Program-made: the position numbers and the translations under genes
Shown here: piece by piece, positions 7,321 to 28,240 of the stretch
Layout: every line of letters begins with the position of its first letter
How positions within the stretch are numbered: the stretch's first letter is position 1
The notes under the pieces: generated by a model
The model's input: only the letters and a program-made list of their open reading frames with translations
Told to the model about the DNA's origin: nothing
The model's database searches: none
From: Candidatus Gastranaerophilales bacterium
Lineage (GTDB): Bacteria > Cyanobacteriota > Vampirovibrionia > Gastranaerophilales > JAILCC01
Length of the DNA: 28,240 nucleotides
Direction of reading: 5' to 3'
Assembly (NCBI GenBank): GCA_024408745.1
Contig: JAKSUS010000001.1
Coordinates: 1 to 28,240, forward strand

Positions 7321-8583
7321 ATGAAACCATTAAGAGTATTAAGTTTATTTGACGGTATAAGTTGCGGTCAAGTGGCTTTTGAGAGAGCTGGTATTCCTAT
7401 TGAAGTTTATTATGCTTCTGAAATTGATAAATATGCAATTCAAATCACACAAAAGAACTATCCTAATACAATTCAATTAGGCGATGTAACAAAGATTGAT
7501 TTTACTCAATTCATAGGCAAGATAGATATTTTAATAGGCGGTAGTCCTTGTCAAGATTTATCAATAGCAGGCAAAAGAAAAGGTTTAAGCGGAGAAAGAA
7601 GCGGACTTTTTTATAAGTATGTCGAAGCACTTGAAACTATAAAACCTAAATACTTTTTGCTTGAAAATAATGTAGGTATGCCAAAAGAAGCATACGAAGA
7701 AATATCAAGACTTATGGGATGTTATCCGGTTGAAATAAATGGTGCTTTGGTATCTGCGCAAAACAGAAAAAGATATTATTGGACTAATATCGGGCCGCAC
7801 TCTTTAAATCTGTTTGGATTTGCAACTTGTCAAATACCACAACCCGAGAACAAAGGTATTTTACTTAAAGATGTTTTAGAAAGTGGATTTTCATATCAAA
7901 ATAAATCAGATTGTTTAACTGCAAGGTATCAAGGTGCTACATTTCCACACGATTACGAAAGAAATCAAAGAACAATGGTTGCAGAACCAATATGTGTAAA
8001 TTCTAAAAGTGGAAATGGAAACACTCAACCGTCTTTATCTGATAGAATTTACTCTGTGGAAGGGAAAAATACAGTTTTAACATCAGGATGGATGCCATAT
8101 ATTGCAGAACCTCTAAGAATACCCGAAGCAACAAAAAAAGGATATGTGGAGATTAATCAAGGGGAATGTGTTGATTTATCTCAACTTAATTCCAAAACTC
8201 GCAGAGGTAGAAATATGAAAGATAAATCAAACGCACTATTAACACAAAACGAATTTTATCAATATATCTCACCTGTGCAATTAGGTCATATATCAAATAC
8301 TAATTCACAAGCAAACAGAGTATATTCAGTTGTTGGTAAATCCGTAACATTAAAAGCAGAGTGTGGCGGTGGTGGAGCAAAAACAGGTCTTTATAAAATA
8401 GATTTGCCTGATGGTGAATATTATATAAGAAAACTAACACCTGTTGAATGTGAGAGATTACAAACACTACCTGACGGATATACAGAGGGAGTAAGTAATA
8501 CTCAAAGATACAAAGCAATAGGCAACGGTTGGACTGTTGATGTTATAGCACATATATTTAGTTTTTTAAAGGAGGAAAAATGA
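7321..8583 (+). CDS. C5-cytosine DNA methyltransferase (Dcm family)
   Basis: VLSLFDG, ASEID, GGSPCQDLS (catalytic PC), ENN, Q.R.R, RKLTPVECERLQ, AIGNG motifs in order. Confidence 0.95.
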   Translation: MKPLRVLSLFDGISCGQVAFERAGIPIEVYYASEIDKYAIQITQKNYPNTIQLGDVTKIDFTQFIGKIDILIGGSPCQDLSIAGKRKGLSGERSGLFYKYVEALETIKPKYFLLENNVGMPKEAYEEISRLMGCYPVEINGALVSAQNRKRYYWTNIGPHSLNLFGFATCQIPQPENKGILLKDVLESGFSYQNKSDCLTARYQGATFPHDYERNQRTMVAEPICVNSKSGNGNTQPSLSDRIYSVEGKNTVLTSGWMPYIAEPLRIPEATKKGYVEINQGECVDLSQLNSKTRRGRNMKDKSNALLTQNEFYQYISPVQLGHISNTNSQANRVYSVVGKSVTLKAECGGGGAKTGLYKIDLPDGEYYIRKLTPVECERLQTLPDGYTEGVSNTQRYKAIGNGWTVDVIAHIFSFLKEEK

Positions 8584-11223: not shown

Positions 11224-12306
11224 ATGGGAAGTTTAAGAAAAAGAGAATGGAAAACCAAAAAAGGCATTTCCATTCGTTATGAATATTCGTATATGCTTTA
11301 TGGGAAGCAATATAAAAAGCTGTTCAAGAAAAAACCAATTCCCCAAGAACTCGTAGCACTCACACAAACAATAGGTGATAATCCTACATTTCAAGAGGCA
11401 TTGAATGATTATATTAATAGTTATTGCGCCCTGCATTGCAAGGCTTCAACTATTGAAACATACCAAAATTACTATGACGTAGGATTAAAACCGCTTTATT
11501 TTCTGCGAGTAAAAACTTATAAAAAAATTGACTTAACTAAGTTTATTATTCAATATAAAGAAAATCACGCACCAAAAACAACAAATAACTTGCTTGTTTT
11601 TCTCAAAGGTTTTTTTAATTGGCTTATTGATGAAAAAATAATTTCAGAAAGTCCGGCAAAGAAAATAAGACCGTTACCGATAGAAAAAGTCGAGGCTAAA
11701 TCACTTGACGAAGAAGATAGAAAGTTATTTGTTTATTGTTTAAAATATGTTCCCGATTGGGTGCAACTTTTCTTTTTAACCATGCTCAATATGGGTTTAA
11801 GAATAAGTGAATGTTTAGCCCTTGAATGGTCTGATATTGATTTTGATAATGCAAAAATGAATATTAATAAACAATATTATCGTTTTAGGGTTACAAGTAC
11901 GAAGAACTACGAAGTAAGAATAATCGACATTCCCGACCATTTGTTAGAGCGATTTAAGAGCGAAAATATAAAATCCAATCTTGTTTTTAATTCGCCTGAA
12001 GCCCCCGGACAATATGCAAGCGTTAATAATTTGCGTGAAAGGTGGTTCGAAAATATAAAAAGAAAAATGGAAGAAATATCAAATAAAGATTTTAGCTGGT
12101 TTACTCCTCACTGTTTACGGCACACTCACGCAACCTATTTACTTTCAAACGGAATTCCGTTATCATATGTAAGTAAACGGTTAGGACATCGTGATACAAA
12201 TACGACATTGAACATTTATAATCACGCTCTACCAAGCGATAATTTAAAAGCATTAAACTTATTAAAAAATTTAAATCAGAGCAAAATTAGAGCAAAAAAA
12301 ACTTAA
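11224..12306 (+). CDS. int: Tyrosine integrase
   Basis: GLRISE.LAL.WSDIDF, TKN, HCLRHT, LGH, YNH catalytic residues; short N-terminal arm-binding domain. Confidence 0.95.
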   Translation: MGSLRKREWKTKKGISIRYEYSYMLYGKQYKKLFKKKPIPQELVALTQTIGDNPTFQEALNDYINSYCALHCKASTIETYQNYYDVGLKPLYFLRVKTYKKIDLTKFIIQYKENHAPKTTNNLLVFLKGFFNWLIDEKIISESPAKKIRPLPIEKVEAKSLDEEDRKLFVYCLKYVPDWVQLFFLTMLNMGLRISECLALEWSDIDFDNAKMNINKQYYRFRVTSTKNYEVRIIDIPDHLLERFKSENIKSNLVFNSPEAPGQYASVNNLRERWFENIKRKMEEISNKDFSWFTPHCLRHTHATYLLSNGIPLSYVSKRLGHRDTNTTLNIYNHALPSDNLKALNLLKNLNQSKIRAKKT

Positions 12307-12503
12307 ATTCAATAATAATCGCAGAGATGTGTCCGAGTGGTTTAAGGTGCAGATTTGAAAGAGCGTATTTTTTAATCTTTTTATATTTTTTAAATAGCCC
12401 TTAAAAGTCAATAAAATAAAGGCTTTTTAAAGAATATAGAATTTTATAATTTTTAAATATTTTTAATGTTTTTAAAACAAATTAGAGCAAAATTAGAGCA
12501 AAA
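12276..12503. mobile_element. attP-like region with two pairs of 11-bp arm repeats
   Basis: TCAGAGCAAAA 12276 and TTAGAGCAAAA at 12287, 12482, 12493 flank a tRNA fragment. Confidence 0.75.
12323..12360 (+). other. 5' half of a class II (Ser-type) tRNA; probable att core, not a complete tRNA
   Basis: AGAGATG-TG-TCCG-AGTGGTTTA-AGGT-G-CAGAT-TT.. gives acceptor 5' strand, D arm and anticodon 5' stem; no T arm or CCA follows. Confidence 0.75.
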
Positions 12504-12535: not shown

Positions 12536-12859
12536 ATGCGAAAATCTCATTTTTTATCAAACGGAGTCTACTTAGACACAACAACAGGGAATAAATATAT
12601 TCCACAATCACGATGTGAAATTTGCAAAACCACTTTTCCCTTGTCTGTCCATCATTTTTTAAATCAACAAAAATGTTTCAGAGATTTAGAAAATTCTAAA
12701 ATACATCATCCCAAAATGTGGACTAAAGATTTTATATTAAAAAATCAAAAACTTTTTTTTTTTTGTTTTCAATGTCATGCAGATGTCGAAAGATTATCAC
12801 CTGATAAATTCAAGCAAAAGTACGGTTTAAATTTATTCGATTTCAAGCACCCTAGCTAA
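12536..12859 (+). CDS. HNH-like / Cys-His nuclease-fold protein
   Basis: CEIC...VHH...C..CH; start ATG 12536 after GGAGG. Confidence 0.6.
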   Translation: MRKSHFLSNGVYLDTTTGNKYIPQSRCEICKTTFPLSVHHFLNQQKCFRDLENSKIHHPKMWTKDFILKNQKLFFFCFQCHADVERLSPDKFKQKYGLNLFDFKHPS

Positions 12860-13250
12860 TCTTAAACGGTGGCTGCTTTCTGTTTTTCCCTTTTGAATAC
12901 GATATATGCACCCATTTATCATACTCATTTATCAACTGGTCGTATTCAACTCCGGACTTTTTAACCAATTCAATAATTTGATTAATCGTTAATCCCGTAA
13001 TATGAAAATCAACCGCTTCACCTTTTAAGTGTTGCGAGTTGCTTTTCCCTTTAACAAGCGCATTAACTCTTTCGTTTCTATAACCCGATGTAATAATCAT
13101 CGGCTTTTTAATATAATCTCTTATCGGTTGTAAACAATAAACGATTAAATTCATAAGGTTATCTAAAATATAACTTTGCTGAGGGATATTATTAATCTTA
13201 TTTTTTACTGCAGTATCAGATTTAATTAATTCTGTCATACTAAAATTCAT
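12852..13250 (-). CDS. Endolysin, peptidase M15A family
   Basis: ITSGYR, SQH..GEAVD, WVHIS zinc-peptidase motifs; position after holin. Confidence 0.88.
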   Translation of the reverse strand: MNFSMTELIKSDTAVKNKINNIPQQSYILDNLMNLIVYCLQPIRDYIKKPMIITSGYRNERVNALVKGKSNSQHLKGEAVDFHITGLTINQIIELVKKSGVEYDQLINEYDKWVHISYSKGKNRKQPPFKIS

Positions 13251-13639
13251 TTAAACACCCCTTTAATAATTTCTTTCCAATTTGCGTAAACCGTGCTTGC
13301 TGTCTTTGAAATTTGCCTTGCATACCCATCACCATCAAAAGATTTAGTCTGTACTCCAATGAATTGTTTCAAATATTCAGCTAATCCATTCGGTGGTATT
13401 GCACTCGGCGGTAAATTTCCTTTATTCCAATTATTTGTGTTTTTCATCAAAAGATAATTTGTTAAGTTACTTTTTCCGCCTTTGCTATGAGGTATATAAT
13501 GGTCAAGTGTTACATTCTCTTTTGTTAATAAACTTCCCATGGGGTCAATCTTGACGGTCGGCAAATTCCCGTTTTTAAATTCTGTTTTTAATACTGACTT
13601 ATAACCAAAACTTGTACCGTCAATAATGCTTATTTGCAT
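13247..13639 (-). CDS. HNH endonuclease-like protein
   Basis: TLDHYIPHSKGG...NY....NN.NKGN HNH motif. Confidence 0.8.
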   Translation of the reverse strand: MQISIIDGTSFGYKSVLKTEFKNGNLPTVKIDPMGSLLTKENVTLDHYIPHSKGGKSNLTNYLLMKNTNNWNKGNLPPSAIPPNGLAEYLKQFIGVQTKSFDGDGYARQISKTASTVYANWKEIIKGVFK

Positions 13640-21552: not shown

Positions 21553-22128
21553 TTATGTTGCAGAAGCTCCGATGTTTCCCAATGCTTGAGCTGTTGCTGC
21601 ATATTTTGTAGCATTTGCTGCTTGTTGGGCTTTATATACTTCTGCGTTATAATTACTTACATTATTAGAAAGCTGATTAGATAACCCTTGCGTTCCTGTC
21701 ATCATGTCGTAAATTGTCGCATACGGTAACATTGCAGCTTGATAATTTTGAAGTTGTTGGTTTCTGTAATCTTGTTGTCTTTCATATTCATTGTTTGCTA
21801 AATCATTAGCAAAACCTCTCATTGCATCAGAAGCAGTTGAACCCCTTAATAAATTTCTGCTCAAAAGCGGGTTTATATAATTATTCTCAAGCATATTATT
21901 CATTTTGTTTGTATAATACGCATCGCCTTGTTTATATTCATCACTTTCATAGTTTGGGTTAAGGTAATTATTTAAAAAATTACCTGCGTTATTTTCTGTA
22001 ATCCCGACTAATTGTCTTTGAAAATCCGTTGGTGAATATGTAGAGCCTTTTTTACTCGTTGTTGCTTTGCCGAATAATCCAGTATCGGTTGTAGTTTTTG
22101 CATATTCAGGAGCTTTTTTACTTCCCAT
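21553..22128 (-). CDS. Internal virion / DNA pilot-like protein
   Basis: MGSKKAP start, Asn/Gln/Ala-rich; gene order. Confidence 0.55.
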   Translation of the reverse strand: MGSKKAPEYAKTTTDTGLFGKATTSKKGSTYSPTDFQRQLVGITENNAGNFLNNYLNPNYESDEYKQGDAYYTNKMNNMLENNYINPLLSRNLLRGSTASDAMRGFANDLANNEYERQQDYRNQQLQNYQAAMLPYATIYDMMTGTQGLSNQLSNNVSNYNAEVYKAQQAANATKYAATAQALGNIGASAT

Positions 22129-22131
22129 TAT

Positions 22132-22497
22132 TTAAGCCTTTCTAATATAAATATCATCTTTGTAATGTTCAAAACCTGCTTGTGCTAGTGCATACCTTGC
22201 ATGTTTAAAAGGAGTTTGAGAGTACATATTTTTTTTAAACGCATTACAAACGGTTTCTATTGCTATAATAACATTTTCTAAATTTGACCTTTTTGAAAAT
22301 CCATTTAAAAAATATTCTTTGTCTTTTTCTTCTATATATATCGCTCCAAGCGGAATATTTGAAACATTATCAGGATAAAAAACAAACAAATAATCACCGC
22401 ATTTAATAATATCTTCTAACTTTGGTAAATTAGAATGGTCGATATTATTATAAAGTTTTTCCAGTTCTTTTAAATCTCTTATGTGGTCAATTATCAT
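22132..22497 (-). CDS. Small protein, possibly GNAT-like fold
   Basis: Position between nozzle and ejection genes; AR.AL..AGF pattern (weak). Confidence 0.4.
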   Translation of the reverse strand: MIIDHIRDLKELEKLYNNIDHSNLPKLEDIIKCGDYLFVFYPDNVSNIPLGAIYIEEKDKEYFLNGFSKRSNLENVIIAIETVCNAFKKNMYSQTPFKHARYALAQAGFEHYKDDIYIRKA

Positions 22498-24060
22498 TTA
22501 TTTTCTTCCTGTTGTGTCTGTTTCTTGTGTAATTCCTTTTAATTCAAGTGCTGTTATAGAAAATTCATCATCTCTTTGTTCTGTTCTGAATGTAAATCTT
22601 ATATAATACCAATTTGAAATAAATTTACCTTTAATTTGCTGAATAATATTGTCATCTTCGCTTGACCAATATTGAACATCCCATATTTGATTATCGGGAG
22701 TGTCAGCGGTTTGAGGTGAGTCATCTCCCCAAATTGCACCTTGATAAAACTGATTTACTCGCCTTGTTTTAACTTTTTTACCGTCAATTTCGCAATCTAT
22801 ATTAAAAGAGTTATTGGCATCTTGTGTAACTGAAATTAATGGCTGTATTTCCATTTCTTTCATATTTGAAAAGGAACCTAAATTAATTATTTGTGTTGTG
22901 TATCTTGCGCCAATATATTCATTATCAAATACGCAACATTCTCCGGCTTTTTCTAAATAATATTTGTTTCCGATCACAGAATATAAATTATTATCGTACA
23001 CAAAATAACCGTTTAAATTATTTTGGCAAACTCTTTCGCTCCATTCCCCTATGAAATAATCATAAATTAAATTGTATTCATTCGTATTTATCCATATTTC
23101 AGAGCGATTGTTTCCAATATAGCTTGTCATTTGAAATTTGCGAACATTATTAAAATACTTTTGTATTTCAGGAGCAATAGGCTCACCTAAAACCTTTTGA
23201 CCGTAATTGTTTTGCATGTAGTAATAAATATTTTTTTGCGTGTTATCGTAAAAGAATAAATATTTATCGTGTTTACACCAGCTCTCATAATTCATACAAC
23301 CGCCCAAAGATGCATCTGCTCTTATTGCAGTTGTAACATCGGACATATTCCCGCTTAACATTGTGCTGTCATTTTCGGTAAACACGAGCAGGGCATCAAT
23401 ATATGGTACTACTGCGGTCACTTTTTTACCAAATAATTGATACCATGCTTTGTTGGTATCGGTTGGCGTTGTATAATCCCAATCGGTTATATCACCTTTT
23501 CTTGAACCAATTACAATGCCTTTTTCTGTGCCTATAACAAGTGAGCCGTCTTGCTCGCACATTGCAAGACCTGTTATATCATCACCCTCGTATTGTGGCT
23601 CTAATTTTGTAACTTCTGTTTCAGGGTAAAACTGTACTGAATAATATTCTTTTCCGTTTGTGAATACAAACACATCATAAGCACCATTTAACATGGTTAT
23701 TCCGTTTGCTTCGCCTGTTAAAGTTAAATTATCTTGTATCACTGTATAAGTTGATGAGTTTGGAGTTACTAATAATAATGCTCCTTTTGTTGCGCTTTCT
23801 GCGTAAAACAATAAATATTTTGTCCCCTCTTGTACAGTTTCAAATCCTTTGATTAACTTTGTATAGCTATTATATGTACCCCTTACAATATTTCCCAATG
23901 TTGCTTTAATTTGCACCCCTGCATCATAACTTGAAGCTACAAAATCAACATTTTGACAAGTTGTCGCCGATATTGTGCCGTTACTTGCTATACCATTTCT
24001 TGTTCTTATACCTTTAAATATATTAAATACTGTGCTTTGTGGTGTCGGAAAGTTAATCAT
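22498..24060 (-). CDS. Tail nozzle / stabilisation protein (P22 gp10 or T7 gp12-like)
   Basis: 520 aa beta-rich propeller-like sequence after the adaptor. Confidence 0.65.
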   Translation of the reverse strand: MINFPTPQSTVFNIFKGIRTRNGIASNGTISATTCQNVDFVASSYDAGVQIKATLGNIVRGTYNSYTKLIKGFETVQEGTKYLLFYAESATKGALLLVTPNSSTYTVIQDNLTLTGEANGITMLNGAYDVFVFTNGKEYYSVQFYPETEVTKLEPQYEGDDITGLAMCEQDGSLVIGTEKGIVIGSRKGDITDWDYTTPTDTNKAWYQLFGKKVTAVVPYIDALLVFTENDSTMLSGNMSDVTTAIRADASLGGCMNYESWCKHDKYLFFYDNTQKNIYYYMQNNYGQKVLGEPIAPEIQKYFNNVRKFQMTSYIGNNRSEIWINTNEYNLIYDYFIGEWSERVCQNNLNGYFVYDNNLYSVIGNKYYLEKAGECCVFDNEYIGARYTTQIINLGSFSNMKEMEIQPLISVTQDANNSFNIDCEIDGKKVKTRRVNQFYQGAIWGDDSPQTADTPDNQIWDVQYWSSEDDNIIQQIKGKFISNWYYIRFTFRTEQRDDEFSITALELKGITQETDTTGRK

Positions 24061-24069
24061 TTTTTATCC

Positions 24070-24729
24070 TTAAATATAAAATACTGTATCGCTTTCAACA
24101 GGTTGGCAACCTCTTAAAAATATGTTCCATTTTTGCTCGAATATATCAAATGTGGGCTTCCACCTTGGGTTAGATTGTTTTCTCATATTTGTTGCTAAAA
24201 CATAATATTCAAGCGCATCAAAATATAAATGTTGGAATTTTTCAGGCATTTTTAGAGTTGACCCAATCGAAATATAATAGCTGAGTGTTTCGTCGGTTAA
24301 TATTACGTTTTTAGTAGAATTATATTCAATAACTGCATTATAGCTTTTATCGGGTGTAGGATATATTTTTATTTTTTCAGGGTTATAAACAACCTCAAAT
24401 AATTGTGGTTTGCCTTTATTTTCATCTAATAATGCAATATCAGAATAATACTTTAATTTTTCAATTCTATTATCATTTTTAATTCTTATTTCAGTAATTC
24501 TGCCGTCAATAGGTTGATACAAATTCTGTCCTTTTGTAAATACAATATTTTTAGTATATTTCGCAAACGGGAAATCCTCTCTATTTGATAATTCAGAGTG
24601 GCAACCTTGCTGAATACGACGCATTCCGATAAATTCTTCACTCGTTTTATCTTCCATATCCTCGGGGTCTATCATACTCATTGGAATTGTAGCAGTATCT
24701 ATTAACGATTGGTCAAATGTTTTACCCAT
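24070..24729 (-). CDS. Head-tail adaptor protein
   Basis: GKP..F......I.IYPTPD..Y...EY and MPEKF..L patterns. Confidence 0.65.
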   Translation of the reverse strand: MGKTFDQSLIDTATIPMSMIDPEDMEDKTSEEFIGMRRIQQGCHSELSNREDFPFAKYTKNIVFTKGQNLYQPIDGRITEIRIKNDNRIEKLKYYSDIALLDENKGKPQLFEVVYNPEKIKIYPTPDKSYNAVIEYNSTKNVILTDETLSYYISIGSTLKMPEKFQHLYFDALEYYVLATNMRKQSNPRWKPTFDIFEQKWNIFLRGCQPVESDTVFYI

Positions 24730-25592
24730 TATTTCATACCTTTAATTGCTTTAATTACGTCATCTTTTTTTGTTGAAGAAAGTTTAATATTATTTTCTTT
24801 GCAATATGCAAGCATTTCTTTATAACTCATTTTTTCAATGTCTTTTTCTTCTTTTTTTTCTCTTAATTCAGTAAGCATTTTTACGCACAAACCGTTGTAA
24901 TTTAACTCTGTTTCACCGTTTAAAATTAAATGTTTCTTTTCAGGTGGCAAGATTGAACCAATAACCAAACCGCTTTCAATACTTTTATTGTTTTTACCCT
25001 CTGTCCATACTTCATATCGACAATTTTCGTTAAATGCGTGTATTTCAAGTAATGTTTTTTTTCTTGGTGCCGTTGCACCTAATAATTTTTCTTCATCTGT
25101 AATTGGCATTAATTCTTCTTTCATAGTTAAAAACTCCTTAATTTTCAAATGCGGAATGTCAAACACTCCGTTTTCTGAATATTTATACATATTTATATAT
25201 GGCTTTAATTCATTTACGCATTTTCTGTTGTAGTTTTGAAAATCTGCTTTTATATCTCTATTATTACTCATCTGATTATTGGCAACTAAAAGAACGGAAT
25301 CATATCTTTTATAAATCAAATAATCGAGGCATAAAATAAGCGAACTATTGCGATTAGGCAAATAATGACCGTCAATAACCCCTTTTTTATCTCTATCATA
25401 ATTTATGCTTATAACAGGACAACTATCGCAATTTAAACATTTATCAACAATATCATCAGCGCATAATCTTATGTTAGGCTTTAATTCGGCACAATAATTG
25501 TTGCATGCGATTTTAAATACATCCGTATTTTTTAAAAGTTCTTTTTCTTCTTCTGTAATATCTGCATAAGTTAATATTATTGCTTTAGCCAT
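24729..25592 (-). CDS. Glycosyltransferase-like (Maf/DUF115/GT29-like) domain fused to a C-terminal HeH/Rho-N-like domain
   Basis: IACNN...P.IRLCAD and SSLILCLDYLIYKRYDSVLLVA resemble that fold; tail IEKMSYKEML.YCKENNI......KDDVIKAI. Confidence 0.45.
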   Translation of the reverse strand: MAKAIILTYADITEEEKELLKNTDVFKIACNNYCAELKPNIRLCADDIVDKCLNCDSCPVISINYDRDKKGVIDGHYLPNRNSSLILCLDYLIYKRYDSVLLVANNQMSNNRDIKADFQNYNRKCVNELKPYINMYKYSENGVFDIPHLKIKEFLTMKEELMPITDEEKLLGATAPRKKTLLEIHAFNENCRYEVWTEGKNNKSIESGLVIGSILPPEKKHLILNGETELNYNGLCVKMLTELREKKEEKDIEKMSYKEMLAYCKENNIKLSSTKKDDVIKAIKGMK

Positions 25593-26224
25593 AAGTCCAT
25601 ATCCTTTTTGTCCGAGCTTGGAAAATGCAAAATAACAGGATTATTACATGCTCTTTCTCCATAATCCCTTTTATAACAATAATTCCATTTCTCGTTTACT
25701 AATTTTATTTTGTCGTGGAAGCACCAATTTATTATAGTTTCATCTGCACTAAACGGCTCTTGTTTACCTATTGCGCCTTTCCAATTATCTTTAATTTGTT
25801 TAAAATAGTTTTCTTTGTTCATAAGCGATATATTAAACATCATCATGCCGGAACACGTATAATAGGGAAGTCCTAACTGTTTAGCTTGAATATCTGAATA
25901 TAAATGCCCTCTTGTTGCTAAAATATAATTATTTTCAAAATCAACATTAAATAAAGGCTCTAAACTACCTAAACAAACAGTATCACAATCAAGATACAAT
26001 GCTTTTTTAAGTTTGGGAAAATACTTTGGAATTAATAACCGCAAAAAACAAGCCTTTGAAACATGTTTAAATCCGCATAACTCATAAGTAAATTCTTTTA
26101 ATTCATTATTAATATCTTTTCTAATTGTATGTATTTTTGCTTGCGGGTTGTGTTTTAAAATACTTTCTTTAGACTTGTTAAATAATTCTTTGTAATTTTC
26201 ATCAAAACAATAAATTACATCCAT
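25577..26224 (-). CDS. Glycosyltransferase family 8
   Basis: YCFDENY, RLLIP, LYLDCD (DxD), SGMM.FN, DE..IN, WNY, ILHF. Confidence 0.92.
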   Translation of the reverse strand: MDVIYCFDENYKELFNKSKESILKHNPQAKIHTIRKDINNELKEFTYELCGFKHVSKACFLRLLIPKYFPKLKKALYLDCDTVCLGSLEPLFNVDFENNYILATRGHLYSDIQAKQLGLPYYTCSGMMMFNISLMNKENYFKQIKDNWKGAIGKQEPFSADETIINWCFHDKIKLVNEKWNYCYKRDYGERACNNPVILHFPSSDKKDMDLWLKQ

Positions 26225-26238
26225 AAATTACCTTTTTT

Positions 26239-26269
26239 AAAAAAGGCGAGGGTAAAAATACCCCCACCT
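26239..26269 (-). terminator. Intrinsic terminator after the capsid gene
   Basis: Minus strand AGGTGGGGGTA-tttt-TACCCTCGCCT then T-run. Confidence 0.75.
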
Positions 26270-26278
26270 AATTAATTC

Positions 26279-27184
26279 TTATAGAAAAGAACCAGTAACT
26301 TTAGAAGTTACGATACAATCAGGGTTAGCAACTTGACCACCGTAAACTAATAAGCATCTTACGAAATCGCCAACTTGGTCTTTATCTCTAAGAGTTTCAG
26401 TTTTAGTGATTTGTTCTGCGTAAGTGATAGCATCAGAAGTTAAAGCTACCATAGTTTGAGAGAAAACTGCTGCACTACCTGTACCTGTTTTATCAGTAGC
26501 GATATTAGTATCAACGAATACATCAAATCCACCTAAAGTACCGATTTGACCTTTTCTTAATACTTCAGCACCAACTGCATTAGCAAAGAATTGAGAGCAT
26601 TGTTTGATAACACCTTCAATTTCAGGAGTTACAACTAATGCCGGTCTTTTGCCTGCATAGTCAACACCATTGATTAAAGCATTTTTTCTGCCTAATACAG
26701 AATACATTTTGCATACTTCAGCCCAAACATTGTCTTTTGTTAATTGAAGAGCTGAATCTGTGTGCAATTTAGTAGTAGCATTAGCAACTGCTAAACCGTG
26801 AATGTATTTATCTTTAGTTTGAGATGCAGCAACAGCGATTCTGTTAATGTATTGATTAACTAAATCAATGTTAGATTGAACTTTTTGAATATCATCAACC
26901 AAGAATGGAATGATTTTTTGTTGAGATATTTCAAGAGCTTGTTTGTCACCTGTTGGGTCTTGGTAAGTAATACCAGAAAAACCTGTTGCAGTTGGGTTGT
27001 AATCAGAAACTGTCAAAGAGCCTAAAGTATAGAAGTAAACTTTATCACCCTTAGATTTAATTTCGCCTTCGTACTTGTGATTAACGATATCCATATATTT
27101 ACCGTGATCATCAAGAGTTGCGTTTAATTTAGCACTCCATAATTCAGGAGTAAATCCACCATTTTTTACTGATATGTCTGTCAT
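26279..27184 (-). CDS. Major capsid protein (P22 gp5-like, HK97 fold)
   Basis: FTPELWSA.L...YEGEIK..GDKV...GQIG...GF.V...R.LLVYG; Ala-rich; follows scaffold; own terminator. Confidence 0.85.
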   Translation of the reverse strand: MTDISVKNGGFTPELWSAKLNATLDDHGKYMDIVNHKYEGEIKSKGDKVYFYTLGSLTVSDYNPTATGFSGITYQDPTGDKQALEISQQKIIPFLVDDIQKVQSNIDLVNQYINRIAVAASQTKDKYIHGLAVANATTKLHTDSALQLTKDNVWAEVCKMYSVLGRKNALINGVDYAGKRPALVVTPEIEGVIKQCSQFFANAVGAEVLRKGQIGTLGGFDVFVDTNIATDKTGTGSAAVFSQTMVALTSDAITYAEQITKTETLRDKDQVGDFVRCLLVYGGQVANPDCIVTSKVTGSFL

Positions 27185-27190
27185 TTTAAA

Positions 27191-28177
27191 TTATCCTTTC
27201 ATAATTACCGCATCCACTTTTTCCATACCGAATTTCTTAACTGCCTTTTGATACAAACTAGGATTAGCAATCATTTCATCTCGTGTAGGTATTCCAGATG
27301 CTTGTTTTTGTACTACTGTTTCGCCTGTCGGAACCGTCGCGTTTGCTTTGGTCTTTTCGGCTTCTTGTTTGACTAAATACTCTTTAACTCCTATTTCTTT
27401 AATCTTTTGAATAGCTTTTGTAGTCATATCCAAATCAACTCCGCCCGTTAAATCAAACATTTGTTTCACTATTGAATGAATTTCAGGAGAGTAATTTTCG
27501 CTATCTTGATAAAGTAAGGTTTTTAATTCGGGTATTTCATCAACTTTTTGAGCTAATGAGTTAGCTCGTTGCTCCCTGTCTAATCTAATGGCTTTGTCAA
27601 ATTCAGATTGCATTTTGTCGGTTAAATTGCGTTTTTCTATCGCAATTTGTTCAACAATATCCGCTCTGAAATAGTCTTTAACTTGTGCCATTTTTGCTTC
27701 ATATGCTCGTTTGTTTTGCGGGTTATAAAGTTGTTTTGCTTCATTTAATAAAGCTTCTACTGTGTTTCTTTCATCTCCGTTTAATTGACGAGCCAATGAG
27801 TCGTACGCCAGAAACTCTTTATTATCGACATCGAACCTATAGCGATTTTCAAAATCAGGGTTAATTTTTCCTTTGTCATCAACTAGTTGAGGTTGAAGTT
27901 GTTTTTTTAATTGTGCTAATTCTTGAGAAACTTTTGTAAAAGATGCTTGATTGTCTTTTGCTATTTTTTCCCAATCTTTCGTAGCTTCAACCGTAGGTGT
28001 CGCTTTTGGAGTTTCTTCTGTGATTTCAGTTCCGTCAATCACGGTATTATCAGGCTCATTAGTTACATTTTGCTCAATAGTCTGATTTTCAGGTTGAGTG
28101 TTTTCGCTTGTAACTTCTTGAGTAGTCTTTTCAACCGATGTTTCGGGAGTAGTTGAAATGTTTTGCGTTTCTTCCAT
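27191..28177 (-). CDS. Capsid scaffolding protein
   Basis: Acidic Thr/Glu-rich N-terminus, coiled coils, directly upstream of capsid gene. Confidence 0.7.
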   Translation of the reverse strand: MEETQNISTTPETSVEKTTQEVTSENTQPENQTIEQNVTNEPDNTVIDGTEITEETPKATPTVEATKDWEKIAKDNQASFTKVSQELAQLKKQLQPQLVDDKGKINPDFENRYRFDVDNKEFLAYDSLARQLNGDERNTVEALLNEAKQLYNPQNKRAYEAKMAQVKDYFRADIVEQIAIEKRNLTDKMQSEFDKAIRLDREQRANSLAQKVDEIPELKTLLYQDSENYSPEIHSIVKQMFDLTGGVDLDMTTKAIQKIKEIGVKEYLVKQEAEKTKANATVPTGETVVQKQASGIPTRDEMIANPSLYQKAVKKFGMEKVDAVIMKG

Positions 28178-28216
28178 AGATTTTTCCTTTGCTTTTTTGC
28201 GCTACAGAATAGCCGA

Positions 28217-28240
28217 TTAGTTTTGAACCCTTTCGGCTTG
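28217..28240 (-). CDS. 3' end of an upstream gene truncated by the window edge
   Basis: Minus strand CAA GCC GAA AGG GTT CAA AAC TAA; too short to identify. Confidence 0.3.
   Translation of the reverse strand, partial: QAERVQN

Follow-up and report, generated by a model that had tools for sequence, protein, structure and literature searches.

A GT8 glycosyltransferase and a predicted sialyltransferase-like partner between the capsid and adaptor genes of a probable gut or rumen phage: a candidate virion glycosylation module

The 28,240-nucleotide (nt) contig JAKSUS010000001.1 (assembly GCA_024408745.1), analyzed here over its full length and referred to as the window, carries two overlapping genes between the major capsid and head-tail adaptor genes of a phage: one encodes a glycosyltransferase of family 8 (GT8), and the other, open reading frame 2 (ORF2), a protein whose predicted fold resembles those of flagellin glycosyltransferases and sialyltransferases. 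We tentatively propose that the two proteins glycosylate a virion protein of this phage, a possibility that, on sequence evidence, we place a little short of an even chance. This explanation fits best because the pair is wired to the adaptor gene within the head operon, because three unrelated phage types have it in their head-neck modules, with ORF2 or its relative famB right after the capsid gene, and because the enzymes are soluble, the nearest fold is that of the flagellin glycosyltransferase Maf, a GT8 relative acts on protein glycans and mycobacteriophages provide a precedent. A preliminary description of the same DNA had proposed virion glycosylation, and the idea is upheld in part: an intact GT8, the fold of ORF2, the conserved pairing and its recurrence in head operons speak for it, and the two motifs missing from ORF2 do not.

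Organization of the Head Module

The preliminary description placed a GT8 gene directly behind the capsid terminator, overlapping a second gene and lying inside the head module, and each element of this arrangement was recovered. The features concerned are listed below.

26279-27184, minus strand: major capsid protein gene (301 amino acids, aa), the upstream boundary of the module
26244-26269, minus strand: terminator-like or attenuator hairpin with a T-run, directly after the capsid stop codon
25577-26224, minus strand: GT8 glycosyltransferase gene (215 aa), with its DxD motif at nt 25982-25990
25577-25592, minus strand: 16-nt overlap of GT8 and ORF2, with ORF2 in the -1 frame relative to GT8
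24729-25592, minus strand: ORF2 gene (287 aa), an open reading frame read from the sequence
25113-25592, minus strand: ORF2 N-domain (residues 1-160), Rossmann-like
24858-25100, minus strand: ORF2 middle domain (approximately residues 165-245), small alpha+beta
24732-24842, minus strand: ORF2 C-terminal helix-extended-helix (HeH; Rho_N/SAP-like) tail, after a charged linker
24070-24729, minus strand: head-tail adaptor gene (219 aa), the downstream boundary of the module
27191-28177, minus strand: scaffold-like protein gene (328 aa), upstream of the capsid gene; its product is a speculative acceptor

The capsid protein matches the major head protein family phrog_267 (E 5.7e-41) and Pfam PF25209 (Phage_capsid_4, E 3.8e-9), and the 219-aa protein is assigned as a head-tail adaptor because its homologues at two related loci (L009, E 4e-80; L001, E 1.9e-14) carry PF24175 (SU10_adaptor). 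The hairpin between the capsid and GT8 genes is GC-rich, with 11 pairs of which 6 are G-C in the terminator scan, and has a folding energy of -18.7 kcal/mol (z -3.5); the GT8 start codon lies 20 nt beyond it. Hairpins of -19 to -33 kcal/mol, differing in sequence, are found 3' of the capsid gene in all seven relatives that were folded, and they are present irrespective of which of GT8 and ORF2 comes next. No promoter-like site was found on the coding strand of the 54-nt capsid-GT8 spacer in a scan that used the sigma-70 consensus only. Nor is there a terminator after ORF2, which runs directly into the adaptor gene, the stop codon of the former and the start codon of the latter having one base in common (24729). 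A programmed -1 frameshift that would fuse GT8 and ORF2 was considered for the 16-nt overlap and rejected, since the overlap contains no recognizable slippery heptamer.

The GT8 Glycosyltransferase

The GT8 reading frame matches PF01501 (Glyco_transf_8) with an E of 1.2e-26 (94.2 bits, cut-off 24.3), in agreement with a six-frame search. In an alignment of 36 relatives, D79 and D81 of the DxD motif ('YLDCD') and H200 are invariant. The family profile, searched against solved structures, finds LgtC (E 1.6e-17) and GlyE (5gvv, E 4.2e-15), and the N-terminal segment that binds uridine diphosphate (UDP) and the DxD motif align with those of LgtC ('YLDID'); the HMMER alignment of the two proteins ends before the H200 region. 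The third metal ligand of LgtC is the C-terminal His of an H-x-x-G-x-x-K-P-W type motif, and a comparison of lengths indicates that the phage enzyme stops approximately 100 residues short of the LgtC C-terminus, shortly after its conserved His. The GT8 family consists of retaining hexosyltransferases that use UDP-sugars, and the phage member, itself an intact gene, looks catalytically intact. No membrane segments are predicted in either GT8 or ORF2.

Predicted Fold and Conserved Residues of ORF2

Look-ups of the N-terminal and middle domains of ORF2 in Pfam, in PHROG and by language model returned nothing beyond the C-terminal HeH tail, a weak motif that matches Rho_N (E 0.014; in relatives down to 1.6e-5), SAP (3.6e-4) and phrog_10541 (E 7e-7). 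The tail varies across the 34 members of the ORF2 family, of which 11 have the HeH type, 18 a lysine-rich type and five none.

An AlphaFold model built on 34 homologues (predicted local distance difference test 90, predicted template modeling score 0.80) divides ORF2 into three predicted parts: a Rossmann-like N-domain, an alpha+beta middle domain and the HeH tail. In an exhaustive VIA-align comparison, the model best matches the flagellin glycosyltransferase Maf (5mu5, Z 11.8), of which only chain residues 272-528 align with ORF2, followed by the archaeal pyrophosphokinase MptE (8sd5, Z 10.7), the Campylobacter sialyltransferase Cst-I (2p56, Z 9.5), thiamine pyrophosphokinases (TPK; Z 7-9) and GT29 sialyltransferases (Z 5.9-7.4). 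Unrelated Rossmann-like matches reach approximately Z 6, well below the Maf and MptE scores. Matches of ORF2 in AFDB, BFVD and the ESM Atlas include DUF115/MptE-like proteins, many of them viral. The preliminary description had called the second gene sugar-transferase-like and had pointed to structure prediction and Foldseek as a check; the model is confident and aligns with Maf, MptE and Cst-I, and the predicted fold and a profile-profile link (below) support the assignment, which neither a Pfam or PHROG match nor Foldseek against the Protein Data Bank (PDB), with no match at E <= 1e-3, provides.

The invariant residues of the N-domain are T8, R42, D46 and N106, with N31 nearly so, and T8, N31, D46 and N106 sit at or just past the C-terminal ends of predicted parallel strands. 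In the middle domain, G199, N202, S204, G208 and G226 are conserved. All full-length family members have this domain and the 150-aa stand-alone relatives lack it; it has no informative structural or language-model match.

Of 1.84 billion representatives searched with the N-domain profile, only 62 matched, mostly stand-alone domains of 150-185 aa. Among genome matches of the N-domain, the only ones with a name are from Melainabacteria. Stand-alone 150-aa homologues are also encoded on Gastranaerophilales chromosomes (L002, 7998-8450; L083, G002:C48:2779-3240), the first of them between genes for MgsA and the manganese exporter MntP; a search found such a gene in one of two genomes of the same genus and not in any of 38 relatives at a greater distance.

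Sequence Link to DUF115-like Proteins Through famB

Direct searches do not connect ORF2 to a known enzyme family. PF01973 (MptE-like) has no match at E <= 1 in ORF2 or the 34 family members and none in 10 remote N-domain relatives, Pfam links none of the 62 N-domain representatives to DUF115, and a search of PDB sequences with a hidden Markov model of the N-domain gave only a chance-level match.

The connection runs instead through famB, a 200-aa phage family found as the gene that overlaps the end of GT8 in a myovirus type resembling E217. The famB protein of this type has a weak match to PF01973; the first member scores 17.2 bits (cut-off 34.6), and weak matches occur in 21 of the 33 aligned members (best E 1.9e-5). 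Among the 113 clusters of famB, several have precomputed PF01973 matches and one is named 'alpha-2,3/8-sialyltransferase' in UniRef by automatic annotation. Comparison of the ORF2 N-domain alignment with the famB alignment by hhalign gives a probability of 91.4% (E 8.8e-7, 128 columns), and two famB members match the ORF2 profile directly; against the single famB sequence of locus L033 the profile match is weak, and significance is reached only with the famB alignment. The columns pair N31 of ORF2 with N37 of famB, D46 with the invariant D53, 'HSS' with 'HTPS' and the invariant N106 with the invariant D136. By this link and by the predicted fold, for which the model is confident, the N-domain of ORF2 belongs to the sialyltransferase-like/DUF115 (Maf, MptE, TPK) superfamily as a strongly diverged member.

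The two families share a homologous N-domain, a position adjoining GT8 or the capsid gene, and an occurrence in the structural modules of gut and rumen phages. They differ in that famB keeps the motifs 'FGRSP', 'HTPS', 'GIDL' and 'HFD' and has neither the middle domain nor the tail.

Synteny, Pairing, and Natural Fusions

To follow the pair beyond the window, we surveyed fetched loci of relatives (numbered with the prefix L), including loci from IMG/VR; synteny was a check that the preliminary description had named, and the order proved constant. At all surveyed loci with a full-length ORF2, the capsid gene is followed by an optional GT8, ORF2, the adaptor gene and a gene for a 520-aa protein. 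The window and several relatives have GT8 in the slot between capsid and ORF2; one relative has it between portal and scaffold instead, and some ORF2-bearing relatives (L013, L016) have none within 10 kb. In two relatives, GT8 and ORF2 are fused in a single frame (P0078, 491 aa; P0094, 502 aa), with a PF01501 match and similarity to ORF2 in the same protein. One close relative (L035, 6034-6444) keeps only a 136-aa remnant of ORF2 between its capsid and adaptor genes (E 2e-7 with the N-domain profile), which indicates that ORF2 can decay with the surrounding module left in place. Capsid relatives at 26-32% identity have neither GT8 nor ORF2 within 5 kb.

From the GT8 side, all 15 IMG/VR loci with a GT8 that is at least 45% identical have an adjacent DUF115-like gene, which is ORF2, a famB that overlaps GT8 on its downstream side, or a famB upstream of it in divergent orientation. 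From the famB side, an adjacent GT8 is present at nine of 20 loci and absent at 11. A sialyltransferase-like partner at 15 of 15 GT8 loci, and famB without GT8 at 11 of 20, suggest that the sialyltransferase-like protein is constant and GT8 optional. The natural fusions and the 15 of 15 neighbors support a functional link between GT8 and its ORF2 or famB partner. More distant GT8s (30-32% identity; L076-L080, from IMG/VR) are fused to a GT29 domain (33-46 bits, cut-off 23). One of these loci (L078, 5236-7194) encodes a triple GT2+GT8+GT29 protein of 652 aa.

Three unrelated phage types carry the cassette in their head-neck modules. Beyond that of the window, GT8s with 55-65% identity occur in the E217-like myovirus type and in a siphovirus-like type that has an SPP1-type portal, a DnaT_2-type connector, a tail terminator and a tape measure. 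At L110, famB directly follows a capsid gene that belongs, more distantly, to the capsid family of the window. The 216-217-aa protein encoded after GT8 in the siphovirus-like type was considered as a relative of ORF2 and rejected as unrelated. At one relative with a GT8::ORF2 fusion (L001, 5486-7528), the gap between portal and scaffold genes holds a gene for a 680-aa protein with an ART-PolyVal domain (ADP-ribosyltransferase of polyvalent proteins), possibly a head protein that is ejected.

Phage Host, Lysogeny, and Other Features of the Window

The window spans an entire contig of a genome bin of 1.26 Mb and 66% completeness. Two further genes bear on the interpretation of the pair.

11224-12306: integrase gene, approximately 13 kb from GT8 and ORF2
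7321-8583: C5-cytosine DNA methyltransferase gene (420 aa; PF00145, E 1e-47), in the early region

Next to the integrase gene, a 28-nt stretch (window 12324-12351) matches, at 96%, a tRNA-Ser(GGA) gene that the bin carries on a different contig (G000:C151:2780-2866; L085, 1500-1586). This match resembles a phage attachment site (att) and fits integration into tRNA-Ser(GGA), which supports the bin organism as the host. The MgsA and GH57 proteins of the bin are 70% and 59% identical, respectively, to proteins of a rumen metagenome-assembled genome named Gastranaerophilales; together with the Melainabacteria matches of the ORF2 N-domain, these identities indicate that the host is probably a Gastranaerophilales (Melainabacteria) bacterium from an animal gut or rumen. 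The bin also has a match to a NeuB-type synthase (E 5.7e-79), three to CTP_transf_3 (the CMP-sugar synthetase family) and seven to flagellin, and its assembled part has none to PF01973. With NeuB and genes of the CMP-sugar synthetase family in the bin, it is plausible that the host supplies sugar donors for both enzyme types.

The methyltransferase probably serves plain anti-restriction methylation. At the end of the late operon, a gene for an M15 peptidase-type endolysin adjoins a weak HNH endonuclease-like gene (12852-13250 and 13247-13639). No DNA similarity of the window to known phages was found. In two runs labeled 'viral metagenome', 6-7% of the sampled words of window 22000-28240 are present, which indicates that sequence related to the window occurs in both.

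A Model for Virion Glycosylation

In the mechanism that we propose, GT8 and ORF2 would form a late-expressed glycosylation module in the head operon of a temperate podovirus, where read-through of the post-capsid hairpin would let the pair be expressed late, at a low level and jointly with the adaptor gene. ORF2 would be the constant component, recognizing the acceptor and probably adding the first sugar, and GT8 would be an optional second enzyme that extends the glycan with a hexose from a UDP-sugar. Both would draw on the nucleotide sugars of the host, and ORF2 would bring its own middle domain and a polyanion-binding tail, which in the window phage would be the HeH. The acceptor would most likely be a virion protein that receives its sugars in the cytoplasm, either ahead of assembly or while it proceeds.

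Candidate acceptors are limited to two. One is a Thr/Ser/Gly loop of the capsid protein ('TDK-x-GTG-S/T-AA'), kept across all members of the clade. The other is the N-terminus of the scaffold-like protein (approximately 70 residues, window 27968-28177), a Thr/Glu-rich, low-complexity segment of mucin-like composition with a conserved start of the 'MEET-IST(T)' type, which is also found in the homologues of L001, L006-L010 and L034-L037 and is missing from most capsid relatives without ORF2. Ser and Thr make up 19-33% of the first 80 scaffold residues in all ORF2-bearing clade members and 3-16%, with one exception at 26%, in capsid relatives that lack ORF2 (L039-L060); this correlation carries little weight because the ORF2-bearing members form a single clade. 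The preliminary description had counted the scaffold among the Ser/Thr-rich targets, and the Thr/Glu-rich N-terminus is real, although scaffolds normally leave the particle.

If virion glycosylation is correct, a sugar coat on the virion would be a common trait of gut and rumen phages that differ greatly in architecture, with coats built by enzymes borrowed from flagellin and lipooligosaccharide (LOS) sialylation chemistry, and a function would be at hand for a large set of 'hypothetical' genes that adjoin capsid genes. It would bear on persistence in mucus, on animal immunity and lectin recognition, and on interactions between phage and host receptor; the suggestion in the preliminary description that virion glycans serve immune evasion or mucus binding is pure conjecture. 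The analysis defines objects that can be tested: the 215-aa GT8, the 200-aa sialyltransferase-like family and a diverged derivative that may be a pseudo-enzyme.

A broader proposal, which we consider doubtful as a whole, is that ORF2-type proteins would represent an undescribed family of capsid-directed glycosyltransferases or acceptor-targeting subunits, derived from sialyltransferase-like enzymes by replacement of the canonical CMP-sugar loop. They would work with an optional GT8 to place a glycan of acidic sugar plus hexose on the heads of phages from gut and rumen, those of Melainabacteria among them; the swappable HeH or poly-lysine tail would hold the enzyme on phage DNA at the place of head filling, and 'sialylation-like' virion decoration would be widespread among uncultured phages that differ in morphotype.

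Weighing Alternative Explanations

Several observations weigh against virion glycosylation. ORF2 has 'LTYA' in place of the glycine loop 'FGRSP' of famB and no counterpart of the conserved 'HFD' histidine motif of that family; with both missing, ORF2 may be a non-working transferase or use another donor, and its sugar-transfer activity is uncertain. Neither PF00777 (GT29) nor GT42 matches ORF2, profiles find no sialyl motifs in it, and hhalign of the ORF2 or famB alignments against the GT29-like domains of the distant GT8 fusions is non-significant (P 0.16 and 0.055). The capsid protein shows no obvious counterpart to the Ser/Thr-rich tails of the mycobacteriophage acceptors, the HeH or lysine-rich tail of ORF2 has no clear role in the proposed mechanism, and the LOS enzymes LgtC and Cst-I are among the nearest relatives and folds of the pair. 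The phage is also, to judge from its integrase, temperate. Location is a weaker argument than the preliminary description assumed: the transferase genes of Che8-type phages are reportedly found close to the far end of the genome and not in the head operon, and the post-capsid slot looks like an insertion hotspot, given that in the siphovirus-like L032 (1404-2375 and 2757-3344) the cassette is separated from the capsid gene by a GIY-YIG homing endonuclease. At the same locus, famB lies on the strand opposite to the structural genes, 14 nt from the GT8 start, and would thus need its own promoter, as a moron would.

Some of these points suit the main rival explanation, which we consider unlikely if by no means negligible: that the pair remodels a host glycoconjugate (the core of lipopolysaccharide or LOS, the capsule, or glycosylated flagellin), in lysogens or late in infection, and so masks the phage receptor (superinfection exclusion) or alters host antigenicity. 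Its model would be the pairs of LgtC and a sialyltransferase that act on LOS, and both the nearest solved GT8 (LgtC, E 1.6e-17) and Cst-I (Z 9.5) are LOS enzymes. It would suit a temperate phage with an integrase and an att-like match to tRNA-Ser(GGA), and a probable host that carries NeuB, is flagellated and, going by its probable taxon, has an outer membrane. A promoter of its own, implied for famB in the phage type in which its transcription opposes that of the structural genes, is what such a function would lead one to expect, the lysine-rich tails could aid membrane association, and prophage sugar genes are reported to convert capsules in Acinetobacter (PMC12053666, PMC13228068). The pair in the window is wired differently, with no promoter-like site of its own, no terminator behind it and overlap coupling to the adaptor gene, and its distance of approximately 13 kb from the integrase is not that of a conversion gene. 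That three unrelated phage types have the cassette in their head-neck modules argues in the same direction, as do the lack of membrane segments and of GtrA/GtrB-like partners, the absence from GT8 of the C-terminal region of LgtC, and an HeH variant that is not a membrane anchor. Flippase or bactoprenol partners, a promoter and terminator of its own and a position near att, which mark a gtrABC-type conversion cassette or a classic moron, were not found for the pair in the window, the promoter scan being one for the sigma-70 consensus. Were host glycans the target nonetheless, the pair would be a lysogenic-conversion module hidden in a structural operon, unusual in itself.

The loss from ORF2 of the glycine loop and histidine motif that famB keeps, its retention throughout the clade, including members with no GT8 within 10 kb (L013, L016), its extra middle domain and DNA-binding-type tail, and a capsid-adaptor position typical for head-completion genes would all agree with ORF2 being a pseudo-enzyme that has a morphogenetic or structural role (as a head-completion, decoration or DNA-associated factor), GT8 then being an independent accessory insert. 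We consider this improbable, because the polar residues T8, N31, D46 and N106 are placed, in the predicted structure, as in a ligand-binding cleft, because D46 and N106 align with the invariant D53 and D136 of famB, and because the GT8::ORF2 fusions argue for joint chemistry; the absence of ORF2 from capsid relatives at 26-32% identity indicates that it is not a core assembly gene, L035 retains only its 136-aa remnant, and the 150-aa homologues among housekeeping genes of host-lineage genomes would be unexpected for a virion part. The tails, HeH/SAP and lysine-rich types being typical nucleic-acid binders, and the C5-cytosine methyltransferase also bring DNA hypermodification into consideration, in which the transferases would glycosylate modified bases as a protection against restriction and the tail would hold ORF2 on the DNA; in some phages, GT8-like enzymes add second sugars to glycosylated 5-hydroxymethylcytosine (5hmC) (10.1101/2023.12.21.572611). 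This we regard as highly improbable, since known pathways cluster their transferases with the methyltransferase and a TET-like dioxygenase, and here the head operon holds the transferase genes, with approximately 17 kb between them and the methyltransferase gene. Searches of the window and the bin gave neither a Tet_JBP match (E <= 1) nor a thymidylate-synthase-like gene, the records of four relatives (including type 1 genomes estimated to be 95% and 99% complete) gave no Tet_JBP match, and the open reading frames of the window yielded no other candidate; with neither a TET nor a hydroxymethylase gene found, DNA glycosylation is unlikely.

Comparison With Known Systems

Virion glycosylation by GT8 and ORF2 would have its closest structural parallel in Maf. 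Maf is a cytoplasmic enzyme that O-glycosylates flagellin, a self-assembling structural protein, before assembly, and the protein from Magnetospirillum magneticum (PDB 5mu5; PF01973) is the best structural match to ORF2. Its residues E324 and D415 are reported to be critical, with Asn at the second position in one Maf homologue, and D46 and N106 of ORF2 are candidate counterparts of the two. ORF2 has 287 aa against approximately 630 aa in Maf and lacks the flanking N- and C-terminal domains of the latter; it also differs in having no PF01973 match, 'LTYA' where Maf has a glycine-rich nucleotide loop, a middle domain of its own and the HeH tail.

For GT8, the two sequence relatives of known structure act on different acceptors. 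LgtC (PDB 1ga8/1ss9) is the LOS alpha-1,4-galactosyltransferase of Neisseria and acts on a glycolipid, whereas GlyE (PDB 5gvv), a pneumococcal GT8 of the PsrP O-glycan, elongates a protein O-glycan, so that these relatives do not decide between the readings. At only 215 aa, the phage enzyme lacks the C-terminal part that LgtC has.

To our knowledge, virion glycosylation in bacteriophages has been proven only for some mycobacteriophages. The mycobacteriophages Che8, Corndog and Myrna are reported to glycosylate capsid and tail-tube proteins with transferases of their own, the glycans sitting on C-terminal extensions of both subunits and affecting immune recognition of the particles (PMID 37329881). 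The window phage differs from these in that their host is actinobacterial and its own capsid protein has no obvious C-terminal extension. A multidomain glycosyltransferase for capsid glycans, A111/114R, is described for Chlorovirus PBCV-1 (PMC7826918). It resembles the GT8::ORF2, GT8+GT29 and GT2+GT8+GT29 fusions in being a soluble viral multi-transferase protein, and differs in belonging to a eukaryotic giant virus, in building N-linked glycans and in using other transferase families. The glycan pathways of phage 5hmC combine a C5 methyltransferase with a TET-like 5mYOX enzyme and GT-A or GT-B transferases, some of them GT8-like (10.1101/2023.12.21.572611); the methyltransferase is shared with the window phage, in which the TET-like gene and the clustering were not found.

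A full-text literature search found no description of a GT8 and sialyltransferase-like pair in phage structural modules.

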